Shown: one piece after another, positions 17,751 through 56,818 of the stretch
How positions within the stretch are numbered: the first letter of the stretch is position 1
Layout of the letters: every line of letters starts with the position of its first letter
NCBI GenBank assembly: GCA_046538735.1
Contig: JBKHII010000003.1
Coordinates: 18,458-82,457 of the forward strand
From: Spirochaetales bacterium
Lineage (GTDB): Bacteria; Spirochaetota; Spirochaetia; DSM-27196; SLST01
DNA: 64,000 nucleotides
Reading direction: 5' to 3'
Translations under genes and position numbers: made by a program
The notes under the pieces: model-generated
Database searches by the model: none
Told to the model about the DNA's origin: nothing
Seen by the model: only the letters and a program-made list of their open reading frames with translations

Positions 17751-19139
17751 CTATGCGTGGATCACCCATCCCTCCGCGGCACGAGCGGCCTCCATCACCG
17801 CTTCCGAGAGCGTGGGATGGGCGTGGATCATCGTCGCGATGTCCTCGGGCAACAGCTCGCTCTTCTTGCCGAGCAGGAGCTCGTGGATGAGCTCGGTTGC
17901 GGTGCTTCCGGCCACGTGCGCCGCGAGGAACTCGTGCGACTCCCGGTCGTAGAGGATCTTCACGAGACCGTCCGGCTGACCGATCGCGACCGACTTGCCG
18001 GCGCCCCGGTAGGGGAAGACAGCCTTCTCGAACTTCAGCCCGCGCTCGGCCGCCTGCTCCTCCGTGGGACCGAAGCTCGCGATCTGCGGCTCGGTGTAGA
18101 TTGCCGCCGGAATCAGGTCGGGATCCACACGCTTCTCGGGATCGTGACCGGCCATGTGCTCAACGGCGATCTCGCCTTCCTTGCTCGCCACGTGCGCGAG
18201 CTGCATCGTGGGGACGACGTCGCCGATCGCATAGATGTTTGCAACGTCCGTCTGATAGTAGTCGTGTATCTTGACGAAACCCTTCTCGGTCTTCACGCCG
18301 ACCTGCTCCAGGCCGATGTCCTCGGTATTTGGAGCACGGCCAACGCTAACGAGCAGCTTCTCGGCCTCGAGCGTCTTCGTGCCGTCTTTGCCCGACACCT
18401 CGAGCTTGATCCCGTTCTTGTTCTTCGTGAGGTTCTCCGCCTTCGTCGCGGTCATGATCTCCACGCCGCGCCGGCGAATGTCGCGCTCGAGCACCGCGAC
18501 CGCCTCCGAATCCGCATTCGGGATGATTCGGTCGAGCATCTCAACGACCGTCACCTCAACGCCGAATGAGCTCATCACGTGAGCGAACTCCATCCCGATG
18601 TAGCCGCCGCCGAGAATGATCATGCTCTTGGGAAGCTTCTCAAGATAGAGCGCGCCGGTGGACGAGAGCACCTGCTTCTCGTCGAACTCGAAGCCGGGAA
18701 TCGTGCGCGGCCGGCTTCCGGTCGCGACGATGATGTTCTTCGCAGTGACCTTGTTCTTGCCGTCTACGGTGACTTCGTGCCGGCCGGTGAGAACACCGGT
18801 ACCCTCGATATAGTCGACCTTGTTCTTCTTCAAGAGGGCCTGCACGCCTTTCACGATCCGCTCGGACACCCGTCGGCTTTTCTTGAATACCTTCGAGTAG
18901 TCGAGACCCGATTCGTCCACGGAGACGCCCATCTCCTCGAGCTCCTTGCGGTGCGAGAAGACCTCAGCCTGGTGGATCAACGCCTTGCTCGGGATGCACC
19001 CGATGTTGAGACACACACCGCCCGGCTTGTCCTTCTCGATCACGGCCGCCTTCATTCCGAGCTGGTTTGCGCGGATCGCGGCTACGTACCCGCCGGGACC
19101 GGAGCCGATTACTACTACGTCGTACTCATAATCTGCCAT
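17751..19139 (-). CDS. lpdA: Dihydrolipoyl dehydrogenase (E3)
   Basis: 'VVVIGSGPGGYVAAIRA' FAD site, redox disulfide 'GGVCLNIGCIPSKAL', C-terminal 'HAHPTLSE'. Confidence 0.95.
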   Translation of the reverse strand: MADYEYDVVVIGSGPGGYVAAIRANQLGMKAAVIEKDKPGGVCLNIGCIPSKALIHQAEVFSHRKELEEMGVSVDESGLDYSKVFKKSRRVSERIVKGVQALLKKNKVDYIEGTGVLTGRHEVTVDGKNKVTAKNIIVATGSRPRTIPGFEFDEKQVLSSTGALYLEKLPKSMIILGGGYIGMEFAHVMSSFGVEVTVVEMLDRIIPNADSEAVAVLERDIRRRGVEIMTATKAENLTKNKNGIKLEVSGKDGTKTLEAEKLLVSVGRAPNTEDIGLEQVGVKTEKGFVKIHDYYQTDVANIYAIGDVVPTMQLAHVASKEGEIAVEHMAGHDPEKRVDPDLIPAAIYTEPQIASFGPTEEQAAERGLKFEKAVFPYRGAGKSVAIGQPDGLVKILYDRESHEFLAAHVAGSTATELIHELLLGKKSELLPEDIATMIHAHPTLSEAVMEAARAAEGWVIHA

Positions 19140-19158
19140 TCGCCTCTCCTGAGTTACC

Positions 19159-20448
19159 CTAGAATAGCACGCGCACCGGGTTCTCTACGATCCGCTTCAG
19201 CTCGGACAGGAAGCGACCGCCGGCGGCACCGTCGATGACGCGGTGATCGCACGAGAGCGTCATCTTCATGATCTGCGCGACGTCGATCTCGTCGTCGTCG
19301 TTGACGACGACGGCTTTCGCAATCTCACCCACCGCGAGAATCGCCGATCCGGGTGGATTGATGATCGCCGTGAACTCCTCGATTCCGAATGAACCGAGGT
19401 TGCTGATCGTGAACGTCGCTCCGGTGTACTCCTCAGGCTGCAGCTTGCCCGCTCCGGCCTTGGAGATCAACTCCTTCAGCTCGCGGTCGATGGCAACAAT
19501 GCCCTTATTGCCGCAATTGCGGACGACCGGCGTGATCAGCCCGTTCCCGAGATCGACCGCGAGGCCGATGTCGATCGAGCCGAACTGCAGGATGTGGTCA
19601 CCCTGCCAACTCGCGTTCGCCTCCGGATGGCGCTTGAGCGCCTCCGCGGCAAACTTGATGAGGAAGGCGTTGAAGCCGACCTTCTCGGGAAGCTCGGCGT
19701 TGAGCTGCTTCCGTGCCGTGATCGCCGCGTCCATCTTCACGCTGTTCTTCAGGTAGTAGTGGGGTGCCGTGAACTTGCTCTCCGCAAGCCGACGGGCGAT
19801 CACCGCGCGCTTGCCGGTCACGGGAACCGTGACGTTGCTGCCCGGCTGCATCGCAGCGGCTGCGGCGAAGCCGCCCGTGGACGGCCCGCCTGCGGCCGCG
19901 CCGGGCGTGAAACTCTCTACGTCGCTCTTCACGACGCGCCCCCCGGGACCGCTTCCTGAGACCTGGCCGATGTCGATACGTCGCTCGGCGGCAATCTTCT
20001 TCGCAAGCGGCGAGGCCTTCACCGCTGCGCCCGAGGCGGGCGCCGTCGCGTCGGTCTGCGGAGGGGAAGCAGTCGCGCCCGTCTGCGGAGCCGCGCCCGC
20101 ACCCGGGGCCTGTGGTGCCCCGGCAGGGGCGCCGGTTTCTTCCTTCTCCACGGCCGGGGATTCGGCGGGAACGTGCTCGGCCTCGGCAACGAGCGCGGCG
20201 ATGTCCTCGCCCTCCTCGCCGAGGATGGCGATCGTGTCACCCACCTTGGAGGCGCTGCCCTCTCCCCGGATGATCTTCAGGAGCGTTCCCTCCTGGGTGG
20301 ACTCGTAGTCCATGGTCGCCTTGTCGGTCTCGACCTCGCAGAGGAGATCTCCCGAGGAGACGCTGTCGCCTTCCTTCTTATTCCAACTCACGATCGTGCC
20401 CTCTTCCATGGTTGGAGAGAGCGCAGTCATCAATACCTTCTCTGCCAT
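19159..20448 (-). CDS. pdhC: Dihydrolipoamide acyltransferase (E2) of the pyruvate dehydrogenase-type complex
   Basis: N-terminal lipoyl domain 'CEVETDKATMDYES', Ala/Pro-rich linker, E3-binding 'ASPLAKKIAAERRIDI', catalytic 'LSCDHRVIDGA'. Confidence 0.9.
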   Translation of the reverse strand: MAEKVLMTALSPTMEEGTIVSWNKKEGDSVSSGDLLCEVETDKATMDYESTQEGTLLKIIRGEGSASKVGDTIAILGEEGEDIAALVAEAEHVPAESPAVEKEETGAPAGAPQAPGAGAAPQTGATASPPQTDATAPASGAAVKASPLAKKIAAERRIDIGQVSGSGPGGRVVKSDVESFTPGAAAGGPSTGGFAAAAAMQPGSNVTVPVTGKRAVIARRLAESKFTAPHYYLKNSVKMDAAITARKQLNAELPEKVGFNAFLIKFAAEALKRHPEANASWQGDHILQFGSIDIGLAVDLGNGLITPVVRNCGNKGIVAIDRELKELISKAGAGKLQPEEYTGATFTISNLGSFGIEEFTAIINPPGSAILAVGEIAKAVVVNDDDEIDVAQIMKMTLSCDHRVIDGAAGGRFLSELKRIVENPVRVLF

Positions 20449-20457
20449 GTCCGACTC

Positions 20458-21441
20458 CTATTCCATGTAGAGGACGCGCTTCGCAGCCGCGACGATCTTC
20501 TCAACGCTCGGCTGAACCGCGAGCTCCAGATTGTGATTGTACGGCATGGGGACGTCCTCGCTCGCGACGAGCTCTACCTGAGCGTCCAGCATGTCGAAGC
20601 AGTTCTTGCTGATGAGCCACGCGACGTGGCTGCCGAAGCTCGCCACCGGCCACGCTTCGTCAACGACGACGGCGCGGTTGGTCTTCCGCACGGAGGCGTA
20701 GATCGCCTCTTCGTCGAGCGGGCGGAGCGAGCGAAGGTCGATCACTTCGGCGTCAACGCCGAGCTTCTCGAGCTCCGCCGCCGCCTCGAGAACCATTCTC
20801 ACCGGTTTCGAGTAGCTGATGAGCGTGACCTCGCTCCCCTCGCGCTTCACGTCGGCCTTGCCCAGGGGGATCGTGTACTCCTCCTCGGGAACCTCTCCGG
20901 TCCACGCGTACGCCATCTCGCTTTCAAGGAGCACGACCGGGTTGTCGTCGCGAATCGCGCTCTTGAGGATCCCCTTTGCGTCGTACGGCGTGGCGTACGA
21001 GGCGACTTTGAGCCCCGGGATATGGACGAAGAGGCTCTGGAGCGCCTGCGAGTGTTGGCTGGACAGGTACTCCGCGGGACCGTTCGGTCCGCGAAAGACG
21101 ATCGGCACGTTGAGCTGTCCGCCCGACATGTGCCGCATCTTCGCCGCATTGTTGATCACCTGATCGAGCGCGAGGAGCGAGAAGTTGAACGTCATCCACT
21201 CAACGACCGGTCGGAGCCCGACCGTCGCGGCCCCCACGGCGAGCCCGGTGAAGCCGAGCTCGGCGATCGGGGTGTCGAGCACGCGCGGCGCGCCGTACTT
21301 GTCCAGCAGCCCGCGCGTCACCTTGTAGGCGCCGTTGTACTCCCCGACCTCTTCACCGAGGATGAAGACTCGTTCGTCGCGAGCCATCTCTTCGTCCAGG
21401 GCCTGATTGAGGGCCTCTCGTATGCTGATTTCCGCCATCAT
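20458..21441 (-). CDS. pdhB: Pyruvate dehydrogenase E1 component beta subunit
   Basis: 'REALNQALDEEM..DERVFILGEEVGEYNGAYKVTRGL' and 'VLDTPIAELGFTG' are typical of heterotetrameric E1 beta. Confidence 0.95.
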   Translation of the reverse strand: MMAEISIREALNQALDEEMARDERVFILGEEVGEYNGAYKVTRGLLDKYGAPRVLDTPIAELGFTGLAVGAATVGLRPVVEWMTFNFSLLALDQVINNAAKMRHMSGGQLNVPIVFRGPNGPAEYLSSQHSQALQSLFVHIPGLKVASYATPYDAKGILKSAIRDDNPVVLLESEMAYAWTGEVPEEEYTIPLGKADVKREGSEVTLISYSKPVRMVLEAAAELEKLGVDAEVIDLRSLRPLDEEAIYASVRKTNRAVVVDEAWPVASFGSHVAWLISKNCFDMLDAQVELVASEDVPMPYNHNLELAVQPSVEKIVAAAKRVLYME

Positions 21442-21449
21442 CGGGCTCC

Positions 21450-22472
21450 TTACACGTAGATATCTTCGTAGATGGTTTCGAGAGCCGGCTCGTCGCTCGA
21501 CTCCGCAAAATCCACGGCATCCTGGACGATCGCCTTCACTTCATCGTCGACCTTCTTGTACTCGTCGTCCGTGAGCACCTTCGCGTCCTGCATTCCGGCC
21601 TTGAGGATCAGGATCGGATCCTGCTGCTGATACGCCTCGAGCTCGTCGCGAGTGCGATACTTAGCGGGATCGCTCATCGAGTGTCCCTTGTACCGGTAGG
21701 TCTTCGCGTCGATCAGGATCGGCGTCTGTTCCTTCTTGGCGCGCTCTGCCGCGGCCTTGATGCCGTCGTGCATCGCGATGACGTTCATGCCGTCCAGCGT
21801 GATCCCGGGCATTCGGAAGCCGGTAGCCTTCACGGCGAAGTCCTCGATCGCAGAGACACGCTTCACGGCGGTGCCCATGCCGAACTGGTTGTTCTCAACG
21901 ATGTAGATCGCAGGCAGATTCCAGACCGACGCGAGATTCAGCGACTCGTGGAACGCTCCCTGGTGAATCGCCCCGTCACCGAAGAAGCAGAGCGTCACAC
22001 CGGTCTCCTTCTGATTCATCACCTTGCTCCGGTACATCTGCGCGAAGGCGACGCCGGTTGCCATGGGGATCTGCGCGCCGACGATACCGTTCCCGCCAAG
22101 AAAGTGCTTCTCGGCGCTGAACATGTGCATGGAGCCGCCCTTTCCGCGCGAACAGCCGGTGATCCTGCCGTAGAGCTCCGCCATGATCGCACGCGGCTCC
22201 ATGCCGACAGCGAGCGCGTGCCCGTGGTCGCGATACGCCGTGAGCACGTAATCGTGCGCGAGGTCGAGCGCGCCAATCGCCCCCACGGCGACCGCCTCCT
22301 GACCGTTGTAGAGGTGGCAGAATCCGCCGATCTTTCGCAGGCCGTACATCTGCGCGGCCTTCTCCTCGAATCTCCTGATCAGCATCATCTGCCGAAGGAG
22401 CGGCATCAGGAACTCCTTCTTGTGGTTCCCAACGCCCTTCACCGTCTGTACTCGTGTTTCAACATCAGCCAT
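21450..22472 (-). CDS. pdhA: Pyruvate dehydrogenase E1 component alpha subunit
   Basis: 'GFCHLYNGQEAVAVG', 'GKGGSMH', TPP motif 'FFGDGAIHQGAFHESLNLASVWNLPAIYIVENNQFGMGT', phospholoop-like 'YRYKGHSMSDP'. Confidence 0.95.
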   Translation of the reverse strand: MADVETRVQTVKGVGNHKKEFLMPLLRQMMLIRRFEEKAAQMYGLRKIGGFCHLYNGQEAVAVGAIGALDLAHDYVLTAYRDHGHALAVGMEPRAIMAELYGRITGCSRGKGGSMHMFSAEKHFLGGNGIVGAQIPMATGVAFAQMYRSKVMNQKETGVTLCFFGDGAIHQGAFHESLNLASVWNLPAIYIVENNQFGMGTAVKRVSAIEDFAVKATGFRMPGITLDGMNVIAMHDGIKAAAERAKKEQTPILIDAKTYRYKGHSMSDPAKYRTRDELEAYQQQDPILILKAGMQDAKVLTDDEYKKVDDEVKAIVQDAVDFAESSDEPALETIYEDIYV

Positions 22473-36790: not shown

Positions 36791-36812
36791 TGAGCGGTCC
36801 TCACCGTATACT
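36784..36812 (+). promoter_or_regulatory. Putative promoter TTGCCA - 17 nt - TATACT - 10 nt - ATG
   Basis: TTGCCA at 36784-36789, TATACT at 36807-36812, ATG at 36823. No SD. Confidence 0.45.
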
Positions 36813-36822
36813 CGGCGTGACG

Positions 36823-37866: not shown

Positions 37867-37914
37867 GCCGTGCCCCGCCTAACCCCCGGACGTTCTCCGG
37901 CCGATACTGAAAGC

Positions 37915-38775: not shown

Positions 38776-38825
38776 GGTTGACTTTGGTATACCGTTGTGG
38801 TGTATTCAACCGCACGGAGCTGTCC

Positions 38826-40154
38826 ATGACAGGGTACAAGAACGCCTCACGCAAAGACGCACTGCTCGGATGCGGCCTCATCGTGTTGGCCGCCGTCCTG
38901 CTTACGGGATGCGGCGACAACGGAATCGGCGCCGGCGTCGTACTCTGGTCGCCCGACGAGTCGGTTGTCCGCTCAGGAAGCGTAGTGACCGTCCTTGCCG
39001 AATCGAGTATCTCGGACACGTACCGGATCGCGGCTGAGGAGATCGAGGAGCCGTTCGAGCTGGAACGGTGGCGAGTCGAGTTCTTCGATGCGGAGCCGGA
39101 AGCCGAGGCTCGTGCGGCAGACTACGCGGCGGCCTTCGACGGCAATACCACGCTCTACGCACGAGCAACCCGCAACGCGCTCCCGATCCGCGAGGACGCG
39201 AACGCGGTCGGCGACAATACCGTCTATCGACTGCGCGAGGGCGAAGAGATCAAGCTCATCGATCGGCAGCCTGAAGAGACCGAGCTCGGCGGCCTCGTCT
39301 CGTACTGGTACGAGACGCTCACCGAAACCGGTCAGCGTGGTTGGGTGTTCGGCTACACACTCGAAGTCTTCGATCCCACGGACGACACCGTCGCCGTGGA
39401 GCGCGGCACGAGCAGCGATCCACTCGTCGATCTGCTCCTCCAGAATGTCTGGCGTCCTATCTACTACGCAGACATGATCTCCAACGCAGCGATCGATCTC
39501 GAGCTCTTCCGCCCTGAATACGGGCTCTTCCCCGACCCTGAGAACCGGCAGCTCGAGCTCGTGCTGCGCCGGCACGCGACGATCTTCGAGTACGAGCAGA
39601 TAGTACGGGTCGGTTCACGAAGATACCTCGCCGAGGGCACCTCGCTGCAGCTCACCTTCCACCGCAACGACGAGCTCAGCCTCCAATACCTCCTCGACGG
39701 CCGGCAGCAGACGCTCGCGATGCAGCGAGTGCCCGGAGAGATCGAGGAGTATGTTCACGCGGAGCTCGAGCGCCGAGGGGCGCTGTACGAGGAGGTGTTC
39801 AGCCGAGGGCCTCGCTTCCGCAGCGACAACTACGGCGAGCTCGAGTTCCTCGTGGACCAGCGGTTCGATTGGACCGGATACGAACGCCTCGTTCCGATCG
39901 CGATTCCGCAAGGAGCGCGAACAACAGGAAGCGTGGACCTTGGGCTCTTCTTGTCCGCATCGCTCATGCAGGAGTACGACGGCGCCCTTTCCTTCCAGTT
40001 CGACGGCGCGCGGGATCCGGTCAGCTTCGCCTACACGTTTCGCCGGGACGGCATCCGCCTCGTCTGGATCCCGCAGGCGAACATCGAGGATCGGCTCGTA
40101 CGACGCGTTGATTCGTCTCCGCTCACGGTCTTCATGTCGTCCACCGGAGAGTAG
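38826..40154 (+). CDS. Lipoprotein with SH3-like segment, unknown function
   Basis: Start at ATG 38826. Lipobox 'LAAVLLTGC'. 'VYRLREGEEIKLIDR...GWVFGYTLEVF' resembles bacterial SH3 domains. Confidence 0.5.
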   Translation: MTGYKNASRKDALLGCGLIVLAAVLLTGCGDNGIGAGVVLWSPDESVVRSGSVVTVLAESSISDTYRIAAEEIEEPFELERWRVEFFDAEPEAEARAADYAAAFDGNTTLYARATRNALPIREDANAVGDNTVYRLREGEEIKLIDRQPEETELGGLVSYWYETLTETGQRGWVFGYTLEVFDPTDDTVAVERGTSSDPLVDLLLQNVWRPIYYADMISNAAIDLELFRPEYGLFPDPENRQLELVLRRHATIFEYEQIVRVGSRRYLAEGTSLQLTFHRNDELSLQYLLDGRQQTLAMQRVPGEIEEYVHAELERRGALYEEVFSRGPRFRSDNYGELEFLVDQRFDWTGYERLVPIAIPQGARTTGSVDLGLFLSASLMQEYDGALSFQFDGARDPVSFAYTFRRDGIRLVWIPQANIEDRLVRRVDSSPLTVFMSSTGE

Positions 40155-42221
40155 ATGGCGCACGTTCAAGCATCCGATATCTCGCTCGCGTTCGGCGATC
40201 GAGATATCCTCTCCCATGTCTCGTTGACGCTCTCCTCCGGAGACCGGTGCGCGCTCGCGGGCGCGAACGGCAGCGGCAAGTCCACGCTCATGAAGATACT
40301 CGCGGGCATCGGCGCTCCGGATTCCGGCTCGGTCGTCACATCCGCGGCAGCACGCGTGATCTACCTCCCGCAGTCGGGCATCACACACGCCGGCCGATCG
40401 CTCATCGAGGAGATCGAGCTCGCCTACGGCGATGTCGTGGCGATCGTTGAGGAACGTGACCGGCTCGGCCGGGAGATGCAGGGGCGCGGTGCGGACGACC
40501 CTGCGCTGCCTCGACTGATCGAGGATCATCACGAGCTCTACGAGCGCATAGAGCGAAGCGGGTACTTCGAGCGGGAAGCCGAGGTCGACCGGGTGCTCAC
40601 CGGTCTCGGCTTCAGAAGGTCGGACTTCGAGCGGAAAACCGACGAGTTCTCCGGGGGCTGGCAGATGCGGATCGCGCTCGCGAAGGTCCTCCTGCAGCGC
40701 CCGGACTTCCTCCTCCTCGACGAGCCCACCAACTACCTGGACGTTGAGGCTCGCGTCTGGCTCGGGGGCTTTCTCGCCTCCTACCAGGGCGGCGTACTGA
40801 TGGTGAGTCACGACCGCCGTTTTCTCGATCAGTCGGTGAACACCGTCTGGGAGCTCTTCCTGGCACAGGTGAAGCGGTACCGCGGTACCTACACCGAGTA
40901 CGAGCGCAGGCGCGAAGAGGAGATCGCCCGGATCAAGGCCGAGTGGGAACAGCAGCAGGATGAGATTCGGCACATCGAGGACTTCATCAGACGTTTTCGC
41001 GCAACCGCTTCCAAGGCTCGTCAGGTGCAGAGCCGGGTCAAGCAGCTCGAGAAGATGGAACGGATCGAGATCCCCGAGCATCTGAAACGCCTCCACATCA
41101 CCTTTCCTCCGGCGCCTCGCTCGGGACGCGAAGTCGTCACGTTGCATCGGGTCTCGCGCGCGTACGGCGCCAACCAGGTGTTGAGCAACCTCGAGCTGAT
41201 CGTGGAGCGGGGTGAGCGCGTGGTGCTCGTGGGGCCGAACGGCGCCGGCAAGTCCACGCTCATGCGGATCGTGGCGGGCCGCGACCCCGACCACGGCGGC
41301 ACCGTACGCTACGGCTCCGGTGTGAGCGGGGGATTCTACGCGGACGACGACAGCCGGCTCTCCAGGCTCTCGCGCGCTCGCGACGCGGCCGAACAGACGT
41401 CGGCCGGCCCTTCGGTCCTGGACGCGACGCTCGCGGCGGCGCACGGACAGACCGAACAGCAGATCCGTGACATGCTCGGATCATTCCTGTTCCGCGGCGA
41501 CGACGTGTACAAGTCGGTGCACGTGCTCTCCGGCGGGGAGCGCAGCCGCCTCTCGATGCTCCAGCTGCTGCTCCAGCCGAACAACCTCCTGGTGCTCGAC
41601 GAACCCACGAACCATCTGGACATGGCGAGCAAGGACGTCCTCCTGGACGCGCTGCGCCAGTTCGGGGGGACGATCGTGTTCGTGAGCCACGACCGCGACT
41701 TCATCGAGCAACTCGCAACGCGCGTGGTGGAGTTGCGCCCGGACCCGGCGGACGCGAGCGCACCTTCGCAGGTCTCGGATTTCGCCGGCGACTACCACTA
41801 CTACGCATGGCGCCTCGAACACGCGGGGGAGACCGTGGAGACCGGACCAACCAGAACGCCGCAGGGCGCCGGGGACTCCCGTTCCGAGAGCTGCTCGGCG
41901 GACAGCGGCGCAGCCGCCCCCGAGGGTGCCGGGGCCGCGACCCAACCTCGTTCGCACGAGGAACAGAAAGCGCTCCGGAGCCGCCGGCAGAAGCTGGAGC
42001 GTACGGTTGAGGGACTGCTCCACGAGATCGAGGATGCGGAGCGGCGTCATGAGGCGCTGCAGCAGGGAATCTCGAAACCGGAGGTGTACGAGGACGGCAA
42101 CGAGGTCAAACGCCTGACAGCGGAGCTCAACGAGGTTGAGCGGCGCATTGCGTCGTTGACCGAATCGTGGGAGTCCGCTGCCGCCGAGCTCGACGCGCTC
42201 GGCACCGCCGCACCGCGATAA
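40155..42221 (+). CDS. ABC-F family ATPase (two ABC cassettes, no TM domain, C-terminal coiled coil)
   Basis: Walker A 'GANGSGKST' and 'GPNGAGKST'. Signatures 'FSGGWQMRIALA' and 'LSGGERSRLSML'. Walker B 'LLLDEPTN' and 'LVLDEPTN'. Confidence 0.9.
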   Translation: MAHVQASDISLAFGDRDILSHVSLTLSSGDRCALAGANGSGKSTLMKILAGIGAPDSGSVVTSAAARVIYLPQSGITHAGRSLIEEIELAYGDVVAIVEERDRLGREMQGRGADDPALPRLIEDHHELYERIERSGYFEREAEVDRVLTGLGFRRSDFERKTDEFSGGWQMRIALAKVLLQRPDFLLLDEPTNYLDVEARVWLGGFLASYQGGVLMVSHDRRFLDQSVNTVWELFLAQVKRYRGTYTEYERRREEEIARIKAEWEQQQDEIRHIEDFIRRFRATASKARQVQSRVKQLEKMERIEIPEHLKRLHITFPPAPRSGREVVTLHRVSRAYGANQVLSNLELIVERGERVVLVGPNGAGKSTLMRIVAGRDPDHGGTVRYGSGVSGGFYADDDSRLSRLSRARDAAEQTSAGPSVLDATLAAAHGQTEQQIRDMLGSFLFRGDDVYKSVHVLSGGERSRLSMLQLLLQPNNLLVLDEPTNHLDMASKDVLLDALRQFGGTIVFVSHDRDFIEQLATRVVELRPDPADASAPSQVSDFAGDYHYYAWRLEHAGETVETGPTRTPQGAGDSRSESCSADSGAAAPEGAGAATQPRSHEEQKALRSRRQKLERTVEGLLHEIEDAERRHEALQQGISKPEVYEDGNEVKRLTAELNEVERRIASLTESWESAAAELDALGTAAPR

Positions 42222-48471: not shown

Positions 48472-49569
48472 ATGGCGGACACGTACATCGTAGCCGAGAT
48501 CGGGACCGGACACGGAGGCGACCTCGCCCACGCGGAGGAGATGATTCACGCCGCGCGGGAGGCGGGAGCCGACTGCACGAAGTTCCAGTACATCATTGCG
48601 CGAGAGATCGTCCACCCGAACACCGGCTCGATCGATCTTCCGGGAGGAGCAACGCCGATCTACGAGCGTTTCGCCGAGCTCGAACGCCCGCTCGAGTTCT
48701 ACGTGAAGCTCGCGTCGTTGTGCGCGAAGCACGGCGTGGACTTCCTCTGCACCCCCTTCGGCGTGGAGAGCGCGCGACACCTGCAGACCCTTCTCCCAAC
48801 CGCGATGAAGATCGCCTCCCCCGAGATCAACCACACCGAGCTCCTGAAGGAGCTCGCCACCTACGAGATCCCGCTCATTATGAGCACGGGCGTATCGCTC
48901 CTCGGCGACATCGAGTACGCGCTCACGATCACCGGCCGGCGGAACGTCACGCTCCTCCATTGCGTAACTGCCTACCCCGCTCCGGAAGAGGAATACAACC
49001 TCCTCGTGATTCCCTCCCTGCGTAACGTCCTCGGCGTTCCGGTTGGGGTTTCGGACCATAGCGAAGACCCCGCGCTCGTTCCCGGCCTCGCGGTTGCGCT
49101 CGGCGCGACCGTCGTTGAGAAGCACTTCACGCTCTCTCGCGACGGCGTCGGGCTGGACGACCGGATCGCCATGGATCCCACGATGTTCACGCACATGGCC
49201 GCCACGATTCGCCGGATCGACGCGATCTGCTCGCTCGACGGCGAGCACGGCGGGGCAAAGGTGATCAACGAGTTCGAAAAGGAGTACGGAGCAGAGCGCA
49301 TCCAGGCCGTCCTGGGGGACGGGATCAAGCGACTCTCGCCGCGCGAGTCGATCTCGTACCGAACCACGCGCCGATCGCTCCTCGCAACGGGCGACATGCC
49401 CGAAGGTCACGTCATCCGAGCGGAAGACATTGCGCCGCTGCGAGCGGAAACACTCGCTCCGGGAATCGAGCCGAGATTCGCGAGCGAGATAATCGGGGCG
49501 CGTCTCGCGAACGCGGTCCCGGGCGGCGGCGCGATCACGTGGGACGCGCTGCTTACGAAGCCTCGCTGA
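48472..49569 (+). CDS. NeuB/PseI/SpsE-family nonulosonic (sialic-like) acid synthase with C-terminal SAF domain
   Basis: '[30 protein letters not shown]', '[13 protein letters not shown]', 'PLIMSTG', '[11 protein letters not shown]', 'GVSDHS'. GTG 48466 is an alternative start. Confidence 0.8.
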
Positions 49570-52255
49570 CGAACCGGCGCAGCACGGTGTGGAGAATGCC
49601 CCCGTTCCGGTAGTAGTCGATCTCGACCGGGCTGTCGAGACGGCACACGGCCGTAAACTCGAAGGTTGAGCCGTCCTCGCGACGAACCGTGACCGGGATC
49701 TCCTGACGCGGCCGGACCCGCTCGTCGATCTGAATCGTGAACGACTCCGCGCCGGTCAGACCAAGGTGCTCGGCGTTCTCGCCCTCCCGATACTGCAGCG
49801 GCAGGATACCCATGCCAACGAGATTGCTCCGGTGGATCCGCTCGAAGCTCTCGGCGACGACGGCGCGAACCCCCAGCAGATAGGTACCCTTCGCCGCCCA
49901 GTCGCGACTCGAGCCCATACCATAGTCCTTGCCGCCGAGCACGATCGTGGGAACTCCCTCCTGCTTGTAGCGAAGGCTCGCGCTGTAGATGTCCGTCCGG
50001 TCGCCGCTGGGAAAGTGCGTGGTGGCGCTGCCCTCGGTACCCGGCGCGAGCTGGTTGCGAAACCGGATATTGGCAAAGGTGCCCCGCGTCATCACGCGGT
50101 CGTTCCCTCGCCTGCTTCCGTAGCTGTTGAAGTCCTTGATCTCCACGCCCTTCTCAACGAGGTACTTCCCCGCGGGGCTCGCCGGGTCGATCGCCCCGGC
50201 GGGACTGATGTGATCCGTCGTCGTGCTGTCTCCCGCCGCTACGAGGACACGCGCGCTCTCAATGGGCGCGATCGGCTCGAGATCGAGCCCCATGCTGGTG
50301 AAGAACGGCGGCTCCTGAATGTAGCCACTCTGCTCGCTCCACGGGTAGAGCTCGTCCGACGAGACGGGGATTGCGTTCCACTGCGGGTTGGAATCCTCGA
50401 GACCGCTGTAGCTCTCGATGAACGCGTTGCGGTCGAGCGCCTTCTGCACGAAGACGGAGAGCTCGTCGTCCGTCGGCCAGATGTCGCGAAGGTAGACCGG
50501 CCTGCCGTTCTCGAGGGTCGCGATCGGCTCCTCGTCCAGGTTGATGTTCACGGTTCCTGCGAGCGCGTACGCGACGACGAGCGGCGGCGAGGCGAGGAAG
50601 TTCGCCTTCGTGTGCGGATTGATCCGTCCCTCGAAGTTGCGATTGCCCGAGAGCACGCCCGCCACGACGAGATCGCCCGATTCGATGCCGGACGAAATGT
50701 TCTCGGGGATAGGGCCGCTGTTCCCGATGCACGTCGTGCATCCGTAGCCCACGAGGTAGAAGCCGAGTTTCTCCAGGAACGGCATCAACCCGGCGCGGAT
50801 GAGGTACTCGGTGACGACCATGCTGCCCGGGGCGAAGCTCGTCTTGACCCACGGCTTCGTCACGAGTCCCGCCTCCACTGCCTTCTTCGCGAGCAGACCC
50901 GCGCCCATGAGCACGGACGGGTTGGACGTGTTGGTACAGCTCGTAATCGCGGCGATCACGACGTCACCGTTGCGAAGCGGGCCGCGCGTTCCGTCGTAGT
51001 ACTCGACCTCCACGGTCTTGGATGCATCATCCTCGTTGAGCGCGAAACCACGGCTTTTGACCGGAGCGCGCAGCGTGTCGTTCCAGCTCGTCTTGAGATC
51101 GCGTACTCTGATACGATCTTGCGGGCGTTTCGGACCGGCGAGGCTCGGTTCCACGGTGGAGAGATCGAGCTCAAGCACCTCCTGATACGTCGGATCGGGC
51201 GTGTCGTCGGTGCGGAACACGCCCTGCGCCTTCGCGTATCGCTCCACGAGATCGATCAGCTCCTCGGGTCGACCCGTTGCATACATGTAGTCGAGCGTCT
51301 GCCTGTCCACCGGGAAGTATCCGACGGTCGCCCCGTACTCCGGGGACATGTTCGAGATCGTCGCGCGGTCGGGCACGGTCATCTTGGAGAGCCCCGAGCC
51401 GAAGAACTCCACGAATCGCCCCACCACGCCGTGCTCGCGGAGCATCTGCGTGACCACGAGCACGAGATCGGTCGCCGTGATCCCCGGCCGGAGCTCGCCC
51501 GAGAGCCTTACTCCAACGACACCGGGCGCGAGCATGTAGATCGGCTGTCCGAGCATCGCGGCCTCCGCCTCGATGCCGCCGACCCCCCACCCCACGACGC
51601 CGAGGCCGTTGATCATCGGCGTGTGGCTGTCGGTTCCCACGAGCGAATCGAAGAACGCGGTCCCGTCTTGCTGCTGCACGACCTTCCCGAGGTACTCGAG
51701 GTTCACCTGGTGGCAGATTCCGCTCGCCGGCGGCACGACGTCGAAATTCTCGAAGGCGCCCTGGCCCCAGCGAAGGAACTCGTAGCGTTCGGCGTTCCGT
51801 GAGAACTCGAACTCGGCGTTGCGCTTCAGCGCTTCAGGAGTGTTGAAGACGTCCACCTGGACCGAGTGGTCGATAACGAGGTTGACGGGAAGCTGCGGGT
51901 TGATTCGCGCCGGATCGCCGCCCAGGCGAGCCATCGCGCTCCGCATCGCGGCAAGATCGACGACGCACGGCACGCCGGTGAAGTCCTGGAGCAGTACGCG
52001 GGCCGGAGTGAACGGAATCTCTATCTCGCCGGGACGCCCAGGATCATAACGGGCGAACTTCTCTACGTGCTCGTCGGTCACTTCCTTCCCGTTGACGTTT
52101 CGCACGACCGACTCGGCGAGAATCCGAATCGAGACCGGAAGACGCGTGAGTCCACTGAATCCTGCTTTCTCGAGTTTCTCCAAACTGTGAAACTTGACGG
52201 GACCTTGCGCCGTCTCGAACGAATCGATAACGTCAAACTTGATAGTGTTGCTCAT
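49553..52255 (-). CDS. acnA: Aconitate hydratase A
   Basis: 900 aa. '[15 protein letters not shown]', 'VDLAAMR', 'GTDSHT', '[10 protein letters not shown]', '[10 protein letters not shown]', 'SGNRNFEGR'. Confidence 0.95.
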
Positions 52256-52271: not shown

Positions 52272-52301
52272 AATATAGCCGGTTCCCAAAGATGACTTCA
52301 A
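52272..52301 (-). promoter_or_regulatory. Possible acnA promoter TTGAAG - 18 nt - TATATT
   Basis: The minus strand reads TTGAAGtcatctttgggaaccggcTATATTcagcgcGAGGctgtcaATG. This gives a short leader with an SD. Confidence 0.3.
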
Positions 52302-52321
52302 GTGAAGCGGCGTGCTATAGT
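52292..52321 (+). promoter_or_regulatory. Possible extended -10 promoter (TGcTATAGT) for the E1-lipoyl-KASIII fusion gene
   Basis: TGCTATAGT at about 52313-52321. The same TGnTATAGT form occurs upstream of the mannosidase gene. The -35 is weak (ATGACT). Confidence 0.3.
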
Positions 52322-52374: not shown

Positions 52375-55300
52375 ATGGCACAGACGGTTACACGAACGCC
52401 TACGAAGACGCTTCTGCAACTGTACCGATACATGGTCACGGCTCGCGAAATGGACAGGATCGAGGATGAGTACACGGGACGCGGCGAGGCCTTCTTCCAC
52501 GTCTCGGGCGCGGGCCATGAGGCGAGCGTGATGCTCCAGCCTCACCTCACCGCCTCCGACTGGCTTCACTGCCACTACCGTGACAAGGCGCTCATGCTCG
52601 CGCGCGGCATCTCCCCGGAGATGTTTTTCATGAGCCTCTTCAACAAGGACGGATCGCACTCCCGCGGTCGGCAGATGAACGCGCACATGAGCGCGCCCGA
52701 ACACCGGATCCTCAGCCTCGTGGGACCGGTCGGAAACTCCGCCCTTCAGGCGTCGGGCATCGCGACCGCTGTCAAGGATGAAGAGGGCGCCCCGATCGTG
52801 CTCTGCTCGCTCGGCGACGGCATGACGCAGCAGGGCGAGGTGCTCGAGGCGATCGCGCACGCGGTTCGCGACGAGCTGCCCGTGCTCTTCCTGATTCAGG
52901 ACAATGCGTTCGCGATTTCCACCAAGACGCTCCAGCGAACGTTCTACTCGACCCCCCAAGGCGAGAGCGACGAGTTCTACACGATTCCGATTCGAAGGAT
53001 CGACGGTCGTGATCCGATCTCCTCCTACGACGCCTTCGGAGACGTCGTGAGCAGCATGCGCTCCTCCAGGAAGCCTTCGATCGTGGTCTTCAACGTGGAT
53101 CGCCTGAGCAATCACACGAACGCGGACGACCAACGTATGTACCGGACTCCGGAAGAGATCGAGCACATCCGGGCGACCGGCGACCCGATCAACGTCCTCG
53201 GACGCTACCTCGTGGATGCGGGCGTGGATCCGTCCGAACTCGAGGACGCGCGCGCCGAGATCGAGACCGAGCTTCGCGAGACCGCCAGACGCGTGCAGCG
53301 TTCGCCCGAGCCCGAGCCGACGCGCACGGCGGTGAAGCCGCTCCCGGCACGACTCACGAGCCGCGAGAACGAGTACGCAGGCAAAGAGCCGTCCGCGGAC
53401 GCCCCGGACGAAACACGGTACACGATGATCGAGGCGATCCGCGAAGTGCTTCGCGAACGCCTCGGCAACGACGAGCGCGTGCAGCTCTTCGGCGAGGACC
53501 TCGAAGATCCGAAGGGAGACGTGTTCGGCATCACCCGCGGACTCACGAAGCAGTTCCCCGGTCGGGTCGTCAACTCACCGCTCGCCGAGGCGACGATCCT
53601 CGGCGTCACGATCGGTCAGGCGCTCGCCGGAAAGCGGCCGGTCGCCTTCCTGCAGTTCGCCGACTTCCTCCCGATCGCCTACAACCAGATCTTCGCCGAG
53701 TTGGGCAGCATGTACTGGCGCACGGACGGCGGCTGGCAGGTACCGGTCATCGTGATGGTTACGTGCGGTGGCTACCGGCCCGGGCTCGGCCCGTTCCACG
53801 CGTCCAGCATGGAGGGGATCGCGGCTCACACTCCGGGTGTGGACGTCTTCATGCCGTCCACCGCGGGCGAGGCGGCGGGTCTGCTCAACGCCGCGTTCGA
53901 GAGCGAGCGGCCCACGATCTTCTTCTACCCGAAGAACTGCCTGAACGACAGATCCGCGACAACCACCACGGACGTCTCACGCCAACTCGTTCCGATCGGA
54001 ACGGCTCGAAAGGTCCGAAGCGGCGAGCACCTCACGCTCGTCGGGTGGGGCAACACGGTCCGCCTCTGCTGGCAGGCCGCAACGGCGCTCGAGCAGGGGG
54101 GCGTCTCGGCCGAGATCATCGACCTGAGGAGCATCGTTCCGTGGGACATCGACATGGTCGCCGAGTCGGTCGCGAAGACCGGCAGGCTGATCGTCGTGCA
54201 CGAGGACAATCACACGGCGGGCATGGGCGCCGAGGTCATCGCGACGGTCACCGAACGGATCTCGACTCCGATCGCGGCGCGGCGCGTGACTCGCGGAGAC
54301 ACGTACGTCCCGTGCAACTTCGCCAACCAGCTCGAGGTGCTTCCGTCCTACAAGCGGATCCTCGAGACCGCCGTCGACCTGCTCGGAGGAACGGTTCTCT
54401 GGAAGCTACCCGAGGACTCGGCGACCGGTATCCGCACGGTTGAGGCGATCGGAGCGAGTCCGTCGGACGAGTCGGTGACCGTCATCACGTGGCACATCGA
54501 ACCCGGTGCCGAGATCGCCGAGGGCCAACTCGTGGCCGAGCTCGAGGCCGACAAGGCTGCCTTCGATTACAAGAGCCCGACCGGCGGGACGGTGGATGCG
54601 CTCCTCTGCGAGGAGGGCGATACGGTCAAGGTCGGCGCCCCCTTGTTCAACGTGAAAGTTGTGGAGGGGGAGGTTTCGCTCAAGCCCGTGACCCGAGAGG
54701 AGCCGGGCGATCCGGTCATCACCGGGATCGAGGCGAGCACGCTCTCACACGGGACCGATCGCGCGACGACGACTCGCCCGGGCGCCGCGGCAGCAGCGCA
54801 CGCTGAGCCGGAACTCGGGATCGTTGCCGGACTCGTCGGCGTCGCCACGCGTGTGGGTTCTCGGACGGTGAACAACGACGAGATCTCGAAGATGTGTCCG
54901 GCGTGGAGCCCGGCGGACATCGTGAAGCGCACCGGCATCGAGTCAAGACAGTGGGTCGAAGGCGAGGAGAGCGCGCTCACGCTCGCGGTGGACGCATCGC
55001 GCGACATTCTCGCTCGAAACGGCATGACGGTGGACGACATCGATCTGATCGTCTGCTCGACCGGCACGCCGCTCTACACCACCCCCTCGATGGCTGCGCT
55101 CATCCAGTACGAGCTCGCCGGGGATCGCGACACGGAAACCGGAGCCTACGACCTCAGCGCCGCGTGCTCGGGCTACCTCTACGGGCTCCAGACGTCGTAC
55201 GACTATCTGCAGAGCAAGCCCAATCACAAGATCCTGCTCGTCACGACCGAGGCGCTCTCGCCCAAGCTGGACACGCGCGATCCGGACACCGCGCCGATTT

Positions 55301-55779
55301 TCGGGGACGCAGCGACCGCGAGCATCATCGTAGGCGCGGGAAACGCCGAGATGGCGAGTGCGACGATCTACCGCCCCGCCATCGGGGCTCAGGGCGAATC
55401 GGGCGAGGCGCTCAAGGTTCCGGCGGACGACACCGACCGCATTGCGATGGACGGTCCGAAAGTGTACCAGATCGCGGTGAGGAGCATGATCGACATGCTG
55501 CGACGAGCGTGCGACGAGGCGAGAGTCGGCATCGAACGGCTCAAGCTGATTGTGCCGCACCAGGCGAATCAGCGGATCATCAACGCGGTTCGCCAGCGAA
55601 TGAAGGTACCTGCCGAGATGGTCTACAGCAATATCAGGAAGCTCGGGAACACGTCGAGCTCAACGATCCCGCTCTGCCTCGCCGAGATCCTCGGAACTCG
55701 GGACGCCGGGGAGCTCATCGGAATGACGGCCTTCGGCGGCGGCTTTACGTATGCCGGCGGAGTAATCCAGGTACGGTAG
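52375..55779 (+). CDS. Multidomain fusion: 2-oxoacid dehydrogenase E1 alpha + E1 beta + lipoyl domain + FabH-like 3-oxoacyl-ACP synthase III
   Basis: ATG 52375 lies 6 nt after AAGGAG (the track starts at GTG 52360).
- E1alpha, ~52400-53300: TPP motif 'LGDGMTQQGE...FLIQDNAFAIS'.
- E1beta, ~53415-54400: 'VQLFGEDLEDPKGDVFGITRGL', 'VVNSPLAEA', 'IDLRSIVPWD'.
- Lipoyl domain, ~54435-54665: 'VAELEADKAAFDYKSP', Lys codon at 54553.
- Pro/Ala/Thr linker.
- KAS III, ~54820-55776: Cys 'SAACSGYLYG' (55165), His 'VPHQANQRI' (55558), Asn 'GNTSSSTIP' (55648).
No stop codon or frame change anywhere. Confidence 0.85.
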   Translation: MAQTVTRTPTKTLLQLYRYMVTAREMDRIEDEYTGRGEAFFHVSGAGHEASVMLQPHLTASDWLHCHYRDKALMLARGISPEMFFMSLFNKDGSHSRGRQMNAHMSAPEHRILSLVGPVGNSALQASGIATAVKDEEGAPIVLCSLGDGMTQQGEVLEAIAHAVRDELPVLFLIQDNAFAISTKTLQRTFYSTPQGESDEFYTIPIRRIDGRDPISSYDAFGDVVSSMRSSRKPSIVVFNVDRLSNHTNADDQRMYRTPEEIEHIRATGDPINVLGRYLVDAGVDPSELEDARAEIETELRETARRVQRSPEPEPTRTAVKPLPARLTSRENEYAGKEPSADAPDETRYTMIEAIREVLRERLGNDERVQLFGEDLEDPKGDVFGITRGLTKQFPGRVVNSPLAEATILGVTIGQALAGKRPVAFLQFADFLPIAYNQIFAELGSMYWRTDGGWQVPVIVMVTCGGYRPGLGPFHASSMEGIAAHTPGVDVFMPSTAGEAAGLLNAAFESERPTIFFYPKNCLNDRSATTTTDVSRQLVPIGTARKVRSGEHLTLVGWGNTVRLCWQAATALEQGGVSAEIIDLRSIVPWDIDMVAESVAKTGRLIVVHEDNHTAGMGAEVIATVTERISTPIAARRVTRGDTYVPCNFANQLEVLPSYKRILETAVDLLGGTVLWKLPEDSATGIRTVEAIGASPSDESVTVITWHIEPGAEIAEGQLVAELEADKAAFDYKSPTGGTVDALLCEEGDTVKVGAPLFNVKVVEGEVSLKPVTREEPGDPVITGIEASTLSHGTDRATTTRPGAAAAAHAEPELGIVAGLVGVATRVGSRTVNNDEISKMCPAWSPADIVKRTGIESRQWVEGEESALTLAVDASRDILARNGMTVDDIDLIVCSTGTPLYTTPSMAALIQYELAGDRDTETGAYDLSAACSGYLYGLQTSYDYLQSKPNHKILLVTTEALSPKLDTRDPDTAPIFGDAATASIIVGAGNAEMASATIYRPAIGAQGESGEALKVPADDTDRIAMDGPKVYQIAVRSMIDMLRRACDEARVGIERLKLIVPHQANQRIINAVRQRMKVPAEMVYSNIRKLGNTSSSTIPLCLAEILGTRDAGELIGMTAFGGGFTYAGGVIQVR

Positions 55780-55791
55780 GAAGCGACCACA

Positions 55792-55840
55792 GGGTTCGGC
55801 GGTTGCAGGTTGTGGATCCACTCAGCAACCGCGCGAACCC
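55792..55840. repeat. 49-nt imperfect hairpin with nested GTGGATCCAC palindrome in the 208-bp spacer after the fusion gene
   Basis: GGGTTCGGCGGTTGC ...18 nt... GCAACCGCGCGAACCC gives 15 bp with one bulged G. The loop contains the perfect 10-nt palindrome GTGGATCCAC. No U-tract follows. Confidence 0.6.
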
Positions 55841-55987
55841 GCGGTCATGCCGTTCGGGTGAAAAGAGTCCCGGAGCAAAGGAGGTCGAAATCTCCGGAAG
55901 CGCCGACCCTCAGGCACAAAAACCAAGGAGGACTGTCCATCCTTCTCACTCCTACAACAACGCCGAGGCGGAAAGGTAACATCGATA

Positions 55988-56818
55988 GTGAGGTTTGAGC
56001 CGAAATTCGCGGTCATCACCGGCGCCTCGAGCGGAATCGGCGCGGCGTTCGCGCGCGCGTGTGCGAAGGTTGGTGCGCAGATCGTGATTACCGGCCGACG
56101 CGACACCGTCCTGCGCGGTCAACGCGACGCGCTGCTCGAGCTCGGTGCACGACGCGTTGACGTGATCACGGGCGATCTCGCGGACGAGAACGTGGTATCA
56201 CGACTCGTTTCGGTGATCGCCGAGCGTCCGGTGGACCTGCTTGTGAACAACGCCGGCTTCGGTCACTACGCTCCGCTCGCGGACGCGCGCCTGGAGCCGC
56301 TCGTGGACATGCTTCGCGTTCATGCGGAGGTCCCTCTGCGGCTCGCGCACGCCGCGATCGGCCGGATGGTCGCGCGCGGATCGGGAGTTCTCGTCAACGT
56401 TGGATCGCTCGCCGGACGCGCGGCAGTGCCTGGTTCGGCGGTCTACGTCGCGTCCAAGATCTACCTGGAGCGACTGAGCGAGAGCCTGGCTATCGAAACC
56501 GCACCGCACGGTGTCGTCGTGCAGGCGCTCACGCCGGGGTACGTTCGCACCGATTTCCATCGCGATGTGGACGACATCGAGAAGCTGCAGCGAAACAGAG
56601 GAATCGTACGCTGGATGGATGCCGACGAGGTTGTCGCCGCGAGCGTGCGCGCGATCGAGCGCGCCCGCCTTCGCTACGAACGCCGACCGGGCGTGCTGCC
56701 GAGACGACGCGACGTGGTCGTCGTCCCCGGGTGGACCAACCGACTCCTCGGGGCGCTCGCGCCCTTCGTACCGCGAACGCTCGTCTACCGGGCCGCCGCT
56801 ACTCGCGCTCCACGTTGA
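55988..56818 (+). CDS. Short-chain dehydrogenase/reductase (classical SDR)
   Basis: 'VITGASSGIGAA', 'NNAG', catalytic 'S...YVASK', 'PGYVRTDF'. GTG start. Confidence 0.85.
   Translation: MRFEPKFAVITGASSGIGAAFARACAKVGAQIVITGRRDTVLRGQRDALLELGARRVDVITGDLADENVVSRLVSVIAERPVDLLVNNAGFGHYAPLADARLEPLVDMLRVHAEVPLRLAHAAIGRMVARGSGVLVNVGSLAGRAAVPGSAVYVASKIYLERLSESLAIETAPHGVVVQALTPGYVRTDFHRDVDDIEKLQRNRGIVRWMDADEVVAASVRAIERARLRYERRPGVLPRRRDVVVVPGWTNRLLGALAPFVPRTLVYRAAATRAPR

Follow-up and report, generated by a model that had tools for sequence, protein, structure and literature searches.

In a 64,000-nucleotide stretch of a Spirochaetales genome (positions 18,458 to 82,457 of contig JBKHII010000003.1, assembly GCA_046538735.1; the window, in which position 1 is the first letter), one gene encodes a single polypeptide that joins the alpha and beta parts of the E1 component of a 2-oxoacid dehydrogenase to a lipoyl domain and a FabH-like beta-ketoacyl-acyl carrier protein synthase III (KAS III). 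We consider it rather probable that this fusion is a priming module independent of coenzyme A (CoA), in which E1 would acylate its own lipoyl arm, the arm would pass the acyl group to the KAS III cysteine, and the cysteine-bound group would be condensed with malonyl-acyl carrier protein (malonyl-ACP).

The fusion gene is an open reading frame (ORF) with zero internal stop codons that starts at ATG 52375 (1134 aa) or GTG 52360 (1139 aa) on the forward strand and ends at 55779 (Table 1). We favour the ATG because close homologues begin with the shared N-terminus MAQTVTRT, and all residue numbers are counted from it. The G+C content at third codon positions (GC3) is 0.85, similar to that of the adjacent genes, and a predicted promoter match sits in the 120-nt gap that separates the fusion gene from a divergent aconitase gene. 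A sequence-only reading of the window had described a single ORF of about 1134 aa with four parts in order, namely an E1 alpha part with a GDG...N motif, an E1 beta part, a lipoyl-attachment lysine, and a complete KAS III with Cys, His, and Asn in the expected contexts, and it had proposed a Pfam search with six domains expected and the E2 catalytic domain absent. This description held: All six domains were found in one frame, neither 2-oxoacid_dh (the E2 catalytic domain with its DHRxxDG motif) nor E3_binding (the peripheral subunit-binding domain, PSBD) matched at E-values up to 0.01, and the codons that it had given for Lys727 (54553), Cys931 (55165), His1062 (55558), and Asn1092 (55648) are exact. 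An AlphaFold2 model of the protein based on a 37-sequence alignment reached a mean pLDDT of 89.4 and a pTM of 0.68, with all four modules confident and the lipoyl domain joined to E1 beta via a short connection. The sole internal stretch with a pLDDT below 50 is the tether at residues 792-814, which in the family alignment is poorly conserved and varies in length.

The KAS III domain appears to have the residue pattern of a FabH that has ceased to recognise CoA. Its residues were followed in a close set of 118 aligned full-length members and in a diverse set of 37 representatives with 36-62% identity to the query, and positions were mapped onto E. coli FabH (EcFabH) from the annotated K-12 record. 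Cys931, His1062, and Asn1092 align with C112, H244, and N274 of EcFabH and are each present in 118/118 close members, where the motifs flanking them and the lipoyl lysine are invariant too; of the diverse representatives, all 37 have the Cys and the Asn and 36 have the His. The equivalent of the ACP-docking Arg249, Arg1067, is likewise kept throughout the close set and is Arg or Lys in 36/37 diverse members. Conservation across the family extends to the oxyanion-loop glycines (the equivalent of the GGG loop) and to the counterparts of the pantetheine-tunnel residues M207, G209, F213, A246, N247, and I250.

The residues of EcFabH that we take, from FabH-CoA structures, to sandwich the CoA adenine are Trp32 and Arg151, and these are lost. 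At the Trp32 position (Asp848 in the query), all 118 close members have Asp, Glu, or Gly, and an aromatic residue is found in 3 of the 37 diverse members (2 Trp, 1 Phe). The Arg151 position (Pro970) holds Pro, Ala, Phe, or Gly in at least 105/118 close members, with Arg missing from the four commonest residues listed there, and it is Arg in a single one of the 37 diverse members. The wild-type solved FabHs that come closest, four in number (Aquifex, 8vd9, S. aureus, and T. thermophilus), served as a control and all have both Trp and Arg; the M. tuberculosis FabH entry 2aj9 has Ala at both positions and is presumably an engineered mutant. A thioester-arm tunnel that is kept together with a nucleotide handle that is lost is what would be expected if a lipoyl-lysine arm replaces phosphopantetheine-CoA. 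Since His and Asn are retained, we argue that the domain would still perform decarboxylative condensation and be no mere acyltransferase. Among NCBIfam models, it scores above the cut-off of the KAS III subfamily PRK09352 (260.1 versus 249) and below that of TIGR00747 fabH (231.1 versus 292.1), and with the acyl-CoA site formed by Trp32 and Arg151 missing, the fusion would seem to fall outside FabH in the strict sense.

The E1 modules carry the residues expected of an active enzyme acting on thiamine pyrophosphate (TPP). N177 of the TPP-binding motif, His247 of the alpha module, and Glu405 and His475 of the beta module are invariant in 37/37 diverse members, and position 148 of the motif, flanked by G147 and G149, is Asp in 31 and Glu in 6 of them. 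His247 aligns with the His of "GPHSSADD" in T. thermophilus and of "GHHSTSDD" in the alpha chain of human branched-chain 2-oxoacid dehydrogenase (BCKDH). Among solved E1 beta chains (1um9_B, 1ik6, and 1w85_B were aligned), His475 corresponds to the active-site His of the G. stearothermophilus and T. thermophilus enzymes and Glu405 to the conserved "PLxE" glutamate. We take Glu405 to be the activator of TPP N1' and His247 and His475 to be the two histidines needed for reductive acylation of lipoyl-lysine in alpha2beta2 E1 enzymes. Both the TPP site and the Cys-His-Asn triad, whose conservation the sequence-only reading had left to be checked in alignments, are therefore conserved. The lipoyl lysine, Lys727, is kept in 118/118 close and 36/37 diverse members, and the AlphaFold2 model, confident in this region, suggests that the lipoyl domain extends beyond its Pfam limits to about residues 673-762. 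The E1 part scores far under the cut-offs of the NCBIfam equivalog models for the E1 of pyruvate dehydrogenase (PDH), TIGR03181/TIGR03182 and PRK11892 (177 versus 411, 155 versus 394, and 202 versus 454), and the AcoC-type model PRK14875 matches the lipoyl part alone. Behind the lipoyl domain lies a motif at residues 768-785 whose Pro780 is found in 34/37 diverse members and for which AlphaFold2 predicts a short strand at 779-783 (pLDDT about 73); this motif might be a docking element, for example, for dihydrolipoyl dehydrogenase (Lpd), the KAS domain, or E1.

The fusion is neither rare nor confined to the spirochaetes. Among 5.8 billion proteins searched, more than 110 full-length clusters had 58-83% identity and the same six Pfam domains; they came mainly from metagenome-assembled genomes (MAGs) of Spirochaetota, and one partial protein was 100% identical to the query. 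An exhaustive search of 50%-identity representatives yielded about 40 more full-length clusters, down to 38% identity, and at least 576 relatives turned up when one genome per species was scanned. The locus counts that follow refer to the best 80 of these at least 576, mainly MAGs plus a few isolates, with flanks of 10 kb. Carriers among them belong to Spirochaetota, Sumerlaeota, Armatimonadota, Planctomycetota (Pirellulaceae, Blastopirellula, and Rhodopirellula), Verrucomicrobiota and Kiritimatiellales (Pontiella MAGs and the Pontiellaceae isolate B12227), Cyanobacteria (Xenococcus), and Beta-/Gammaproteobacteria (Neisseriales MAGs, Cysteiniphilum sp. 19S12-1, Thiotrichales 19S9-11, and Francisellaceae). 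The four-part architecture, for which the sequence-only reading had proposed a database search, is thereby placed in at least 7 phyla. One full-length member with 58% identity (P0090) sits on an 11.8-kb contig labelled Marinobacter halodurans, for which horizontal transfer or contamination is possible.

At 75/80 loci, the whole match of more than 3.1 kb lies in one open frame, with four of the others ending at contig ends and one showing a frame break; a fusion made by assembly is ruled out by this single frame at 75 independent loci. An apparent "split" form (P0162) turned out to be a frameshifted copy in a MAG. Beside a frameshifted fusion copy in a MAG (L088; 9738-10874, -, and 1-821, +) lie a fatty-acid desaturase, LptF/G fragments, and a lipid A acyltransferase, a membrane-lipid context seen at this single locus. 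Pairs of members that differ more in their E1 parts also tend to differ more in their KAS parts (r = 0.58 for 666 pairs), as expected if the modules travelled together, and all catalytic residues of the four-module fusion are under purifying selection.

The cassette of E1 alpha, E1 beta, and lipoyl domain also occurs with other C-terminal partners. It is followed by an E2 catalytic domain in P0180, P0195, and P0150, by an E2 catalytic domain and an ACP in P0202, and by a thioesterase in P0149. In P0187 (2895 aa, N-truncated), it belongs to the loading module of a polyketide synthase/nonribosomal peptide synthetase (PKS/NRPS) and is continued by an E2 catalytic domain, ACP, ketosynthase (KS), methyltransferase (MT), ACP, condensation (C), and adenylation (A) domain. 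P0123 (locus L087; 1942 aa, of which about 250 C-terminal residues are without assignment) has KAS III, a ketoreductase (KR), and an ACP in this place, an arrangement in which the KAS III product would be made on the ACP and then reduced. Nothing follows the cassette in the 781-aa P0163, whose gene precedes same-strand genes for SET-domain, WelO5-like, alpha/beta-hydrolase, and ATP-grasp proteins; this locus (L089, 6001-11549; GCA_001720395.1) may be a small biosynthetic cluster in which a hydrolase-fold protein accepts acyl-lipoyl. The swapping of C-terminal domains suggests that the position behind the lipoyl domain is the one that receives acyl-lipoyl, and the cassette as such looks like a general acyl-loading device with exchangeable acceptors that bypasses CoA.

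In the mechanism that we propose, the fused E1, probably a homodimer that mimics alpha2beta2, would decarboxylate a 2-oxoacid on TPP and reductively acylate Lys727 of its own lipoyl domain. The S-acyl-dihydrolipoyl arm would enter the KAS III domain via the tunnel that usually admits the phosphopantetheine of acyl-CoA and hand its acyl group to Cys931, whereupon His1062 and Asn1092 would decarboxylate malonyl-ACP docked at Arg1067 to give 3-ketoacyl-ACP. A free dihydrolipoyl dehydrogenase (E3), such as the Lpd of the window, would re-oxidise the dihydrolipoyl arm. KAS III would, in this scheme, take the place of the E2 acyltransferase core, and the acyl-CoA intermediate would be skipped. We infer the lipoyl-to-cysteine hand-off, the malonyl-ACP partner, the E3 requirement, and the substrate, and we consider re-oxidation of the arm by the LpdA of the PDH operon in the window plausible. 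The most likely role is the priming of type II fatty-acid synthesis; the fusion carries no ACP of its own, an absence that suggests the housekeeping AcpP.

The genomic surroundings agree with a self-contained gene. The sequence-only reading had noted a canonical pdhABC-lpdA operon in the window and regarded the fusion as an additional system, and it had seen no E2 core in the ORF or its neighbours; both statements were borne out. All four genes of the operon pass the NCBIfam equivalog cut-offs for PDH and Lpd, and the E1 of the fusion shares 25-30% identity with this true PDH E1, which rules out a recent duplication as its source and argues for an old, separate lineage and an additional, specialised system. 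Besides the E2 of this operon, about 32 kb from the fusion, no E2 catalytic domain was found in the window, and within 10 kb of the fusion, E2 catalytic domains were seen at 2/80 loci and Lpd at 5/80. At one of the loci (L046, from a MAG of the Betaproteobacteria), an Lpd that carries a lipoyl domain at its N-terminus (6328-8118, +) lies 1.9 kb upstream of the fusion (9995-13321) on the same strand, with genes for a NADH-pyrophosphatase-type NUDIX protein and a glutathione S-transferase (GST) in between, a single case that may be coincidence.

When the flanking ORFs of the 80 loci were clustered all against all, no partner extended across lineages; aconitase, PtsP, NeuB, MsrB, or spurious antisense ORFs made up the best clusters. 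Nor did these flanks show conserved genes for tailoring, ACP, or export. The neighbours of the fusion are a LysR regulator, topoisomerase I, thioredoxin, and rho in Cysteiniphilum, and aconitase and MsrB on marine spirochaete contigs. Aconitase is divergent from the fusion at a distance of about 90-140 nt in the window and at about 14-16 spirochaete loci (including L084-L086), so that synteny and a shared promoter region are conserved in spirochaetes, with no functional link evident. Since it lacks a conserved partner and has housekeeping neighbours in several phyla, as a gene of primary metabolism would, the fusion gene behaves as a self-contained housekeeping gene outside biosynthetic clusters.

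For the gene downstream of the fusion, a short-chain dehydrogenase/reductase (SDR), the sequence-only reading had proposed reduction of the beta-keto product. The gene itself is real, a classical SDR with the motifs TGxxxGxG (VITGASSGIG), NNAG, and YxxxK (YVASK), whose top NCBIfam match is mycolate_SDR (154 versus a cut-off of 380) and which reaches no equivalog cut-off. The partnership did not stand up as well: The SDR begins 209 nt past the fusion stop codon, with no terminator-like site in between, and its position downstream of the fusion is conserved at 3/80 loci, which rules it out as a core component. It is a possible, weakly linked beta-keto reductase for the fusion product.

As substrates of the proposed priming module, we favour branched-chain 2-oxoacids, which would give iso/anteiso primers. 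Iso-even fatty acids start from an isobutyryl primer, for which 2-oxoisovalerate is the source. The major fatty acids of the described Pontiella species, strict anaerobes, include i-C12:0, i-C14:0, i-C16:0, and i-C18:0 (PMC7356697; PMC10880615). We favour this substrate because Pontiella and Pontiellaceae are among the carriers of the fusion and the described Pontiella are rich in such iso-even acids. A wider reading is that the lipoyl-lysine arm, in place of CoA, primes a FabH-type ketosynthase as a widespread CoA-bypassing initiation of type II fatty-acid synthesis in at least 7 phyla. Branched-chain (or other) 2-oxoacids would be turned directly into 3-ketoacyl-ACP, branched primers might come mainly or even solely from the fusion in some lineages such as the anaerobic Kiritimatiellales, and the E1-lipoyl cassette would be an exchangeable loader that also feeds E2-ACP-KS lines and thioesterases. 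We put this wider reading forward tentatively, as a serious possibility rather than a probable one.

Several points weigh against the proposed priming role or against a branched-chain substrate. The fusion has no E3-binding domain, and re-oxidation of its arm therefore hangs on free encounter with Lpd. None of plsX, fabD, fabG, fabF, or an extra fabH was found beside the fusion in the 10-kb flanks of the 80 loci, bar a few SDRs and a weak acpP-like match (L027). BCKDH and PDH references score alike against the E1 of the fusion. The position of EcFabH Phe87 is Thr in the KAS domain, as in the M. tuberculosis FabH chain, whereas the S. aureus chain has Phe; S. aureus FabH takes branched-chain and M. 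tuberculosis FabH long-chain primers. Both this Thr and the many Pirellulaceae among the carriers, a family not known to be rich in branched-chain fatty acids, argue against branched-chain priming as the universal role; clades may use different substrates, or the substrate may be pyruvate.

Three other explanations share some of this evidence. The same chemistry might yield a specialised metabolite or lipid instead of bulk fatty acids, such as a beta-keto or beta-hydroxy acid, a signal, or a polyketide-like compound, with the SDR reducing the beta-keto product. Such a role would suit the SDR that follows the fusion here and in 2 to 3 close relatives, the KR and ACP that P0123 has of its own after KAS III, the nearest E1-lipoyl cassettes in the PKS/NRPS loading module P0187 or next to WelO5, alpha/beta-hydrolase, and ATP-grasp genes (P0163), and the location of the fusion outside fab clusters. 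We nevertheless think it unlikely, given that the SDR is missing at 77/80 loci and that conserved genes for tailoring, ACP, or export were likewise not found, that the contexts are housekeeping ones (aconitase, topoisomerase I, rho, and MsrB), that the distribution is very broad and the sequence strongly conserved, and that the absence of a dedicated ACP in cis points to AcpP.

It is more doubtful still that the KAS III domain is a non-condensing acyltransferase that replaces E2 and moves the lipoyl-bound acyl group to holo-ACP or CoA. KAS III-like enzymes that act as acyltransferases only do exist (DpsC, CerJ-type), FabH has a side activity as acyl-CoA:ACP transacylase, and the domain occupies the place of the E2 catalytic domain in the sisters P0180, P0195, and P0202. 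However, to our knowledge, KAS enzymes need their His, Asn, and oxyanion loop solely for malonyl decarboxylation and condensation, and His1062, Asn1092, and the equivalent of the GGG loop are conserved in the family, while the lost counterparts of Trp32 and Arg151 argue against CoA as the acceptor. These lost residues, which the four wild-type solved FabHs keep, likewise argue against the reading that an ordinary acyl-CoA-primed FabH is simply tethered to E1-lipoyl, with an E2 in trans (for example, the PDH E2 of the window at 19159-20448) making the acyl-CoA and the fusion serving co-localisation only. The canonical E2 and Lpd in the same genome and a KAS domain above the PRK09352 cut-off would allow this, but the fusion lacks a PSBD or other E2-docking element, E2 is found within 10 kb at just those 2/80 loci, a lipoyl domain on E1 would make no sense without use of the acyl group in cis, and the sisters swap the C-terminal acceptor as if this position receives acyl-lipoyl. 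We consider such mere tethering very improbable.

Table 1. Fusion gene, its modules, and relevant neighbours in the window.
Feature	Position	Strand	Details and basis
Fusion gene E1 alpha-E1 beta-lipoyl-KAS III	52375..55779	+	One open frame, 1134 aa plus stop codon
Sigma-70-like promoter match	52292..52321	+	ATGACT-18-TATAGT, 9/12 matches; predicted from consensus match alone
E1 alpha module, residues 17-315	52423..53319	+	TPP-binding G147-D148-G149...N177, catalytic His247; Pfam E1_dh (17-315, 3e-44)
E1 beta module, residues 350-654	53422..54336	+	Glu405, His475; Pfam Transket_pyr (350-523, 6e-25), Transketolase_C (542-654, 4e-29)
Lipoyl domain	54472..54651	+	Lys727 in "ELEADKAAFD" (codon 54553-54555); Pfam Biotin_lipoyl (700-759, 1e-13)
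Post-lipoyl motif LKPxTREEPGxPxIxGI, residues 768-785	54676..54729	+	Strongly conserved in spirochaete members
Thr/Pro/Ala-rich flexible tether, residues 792-814 (23 residues)	54748..54816	+	Lipoyl region to KAS III; model and alignment
KAS III (FabH-like), residues 818-1133	54826..55773	+	Cys931, His1062, Asn1092, Arg1067, Asp848, Pro970; Pfam ACP_syn_III (925-989, 2e-16), ACP_syn_III_C (1046-1132, 3e-24); NCBIfam PRK09352; EcFabH mapping
Aconitase	49553..52255	-	Divergent from fusion gene
Classical SDR, 276 aa	55988..56818	+	Pfam adh_short (5e-39)
Canonical PDH operon	17751..22472	-	Pfam; all four genes pass NCBIfam PDH/Lpd equivalog cut-offs
PDH E1 alpha	21450..22472	-	Passes equivalog cut-off
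PDH E1 beta	20458..21441	-	Passes equivalog cut-off
PDH E2	19159..20448	-	Lipoyl, PSBD, and catalytic core; passes equivalog cut-off
Lpd	17751..19139	-	Passes equivalog cut-off; candidate re-oxidiser of the dihydrolipoyl arm of the fusion

Elsewhere in the window, three consecutive ORFs of 360, 301, and 458 aa (36784-40154, +) have coding-like GC3 and no Pfam match at E-values up to 1e-5; directly downstream of them, an ABC-F type ATPase is encoded (40155-42221). Another ORF of 959 aa (29903-32782, +) has a single weak PD40 repeat match and no further annotation.

In the textbook scheme, bacterial fatty-acid synthesis starts from an acyl-CoA primer, which for branched chains comes from a large E1/E2/E3 complex, and relies on a separate FabH. 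All parts of the fusion belong to known families, and what would be new is the implied hand-off from lipoyl arm to ketosynthase, with a condensing enzyme replacing the E2 core. Full-text literature searches found no paper on an E1-lipoyl-KAS III protein, although subscription journals were not covered and such absence is not proof. Automatic NCBI/JGI labels call members of the family "beta-ketoacyl-ACP synthase 3", "transketolase", "thiamine pyrophosphate-dependent enzyme", or "2-oxoisovalerate dehydrogenase E1 component", and if the proposed mechanism is true, these labels could mislead pathway reconstruction. It would then add a transfer of acyl groups from lipoyl to a ketosynthase cysteine, with a ketosynthase standing in for the E2 core, and would suggest that the pantetheine tunnel of FabH can take a protein-bound lipoyl arm. 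It could also account for the primers of organisms from several phyla, among them strict anaerobes that contain iso-fatty acids, and, as a compact part encoded by one gene, would lend itself to the engineering of branched or unusual fatty acids and of polyketide starters from 2-oxoacids.

The closest metabolic parallel is found in B. subtilis, S. aureus, and Listeria, where a branched-chain 2-oxoacid dehydrogenase (E1alpha2beta2/E2/E3) and FabH prime iso/anteiso fatty acids. This route has in common with the fusion the E1 fold and its catalytic residues, the FabH triad, and the ACP-docking Arg, and it follows the chemistry proposed here, from 2-oxoacid over acyl-lipoyl and acyl-FabH to 3-ketoacyl-ACP. 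The fusion differs from it by joining alpha to beta, by carrying the lipoyl domain on E1 instead of E2, by having neither E2 core nor PSBD, and by having in cis a FabH that lacks the Trp32 and Arg151 equivalents, with the acyl-CoA step apparently skipped. With alpha and beta in one chain and the E2 core absent, it would stand outside the 2-oxoacid dehydrogenase complexes as judged from its domains. FabH enzymes (E. coli FabH; PDB 2ebd, 1zow, and 1hn9) share about 30% identity with the fusion over the whole KAS domain and have the triad, oxyanion loop, tunnel, and Arg249 in common with it, whereas the fusion has Asp/Glu in place of Trp32, Pro/Phe/Ala in place of Arg151, and Thr in place of Phe87. 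No solved structure that contains the fusion emerged from a sequence search of solved structures, which returned separate E1 and FabH chains alone. The AcoC-type E2 of acetoin dehydrogenase combines a lipoyl domain with an alpha/beta-hydrolase domain that replaces the canonical E2 core. It resembles the fusion in using an acceptor of acyl-lipoyl other than the canonical E2 catalytic domain, but this acceptor has another fold, and its product is acetyl-CoA, with no condensation and no link to fatty-acid synthesis.

The bypass of CoA itself has a precedent in the Qnc-type systems, in which an acyl group is first loaded onto the lipoyl arm and from there moves to a carrier protein in place of CoA; NapB and NapD are homologous to the Qnc loading proteins. 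In quinocarcin biosynthesis, QncN, QncL, and QncM build an ACP-bound glycolicacyl unit with an enzyme dependent on thiamine diphosphate (ThDP), a lipoyl domain, and an acyltransferase domain, and SclQ1-4 are homologues of this system with a ThDP enzyme, a lipoyl domain, an E2-like acyltransferase, and an ACP (PMC6335953). Like the fusion, the Qnc system pairs a TPP-dependent E1/transketolase-like enzyme with a lipoyl arm, and its product ends on a carrier protein. The sisters P0202 and P0187 would represent the Qnc logic in a single polypeptide, complete with E2-like domain and ACP. The Qnc system itself relies on an E2-type acyltransferase and a dedicated ACP to make glycolicacyl from a ketose phosphate, whereas the fusion has a putatively condensing KAS III, no ACP in cis, and a housekeeping context.

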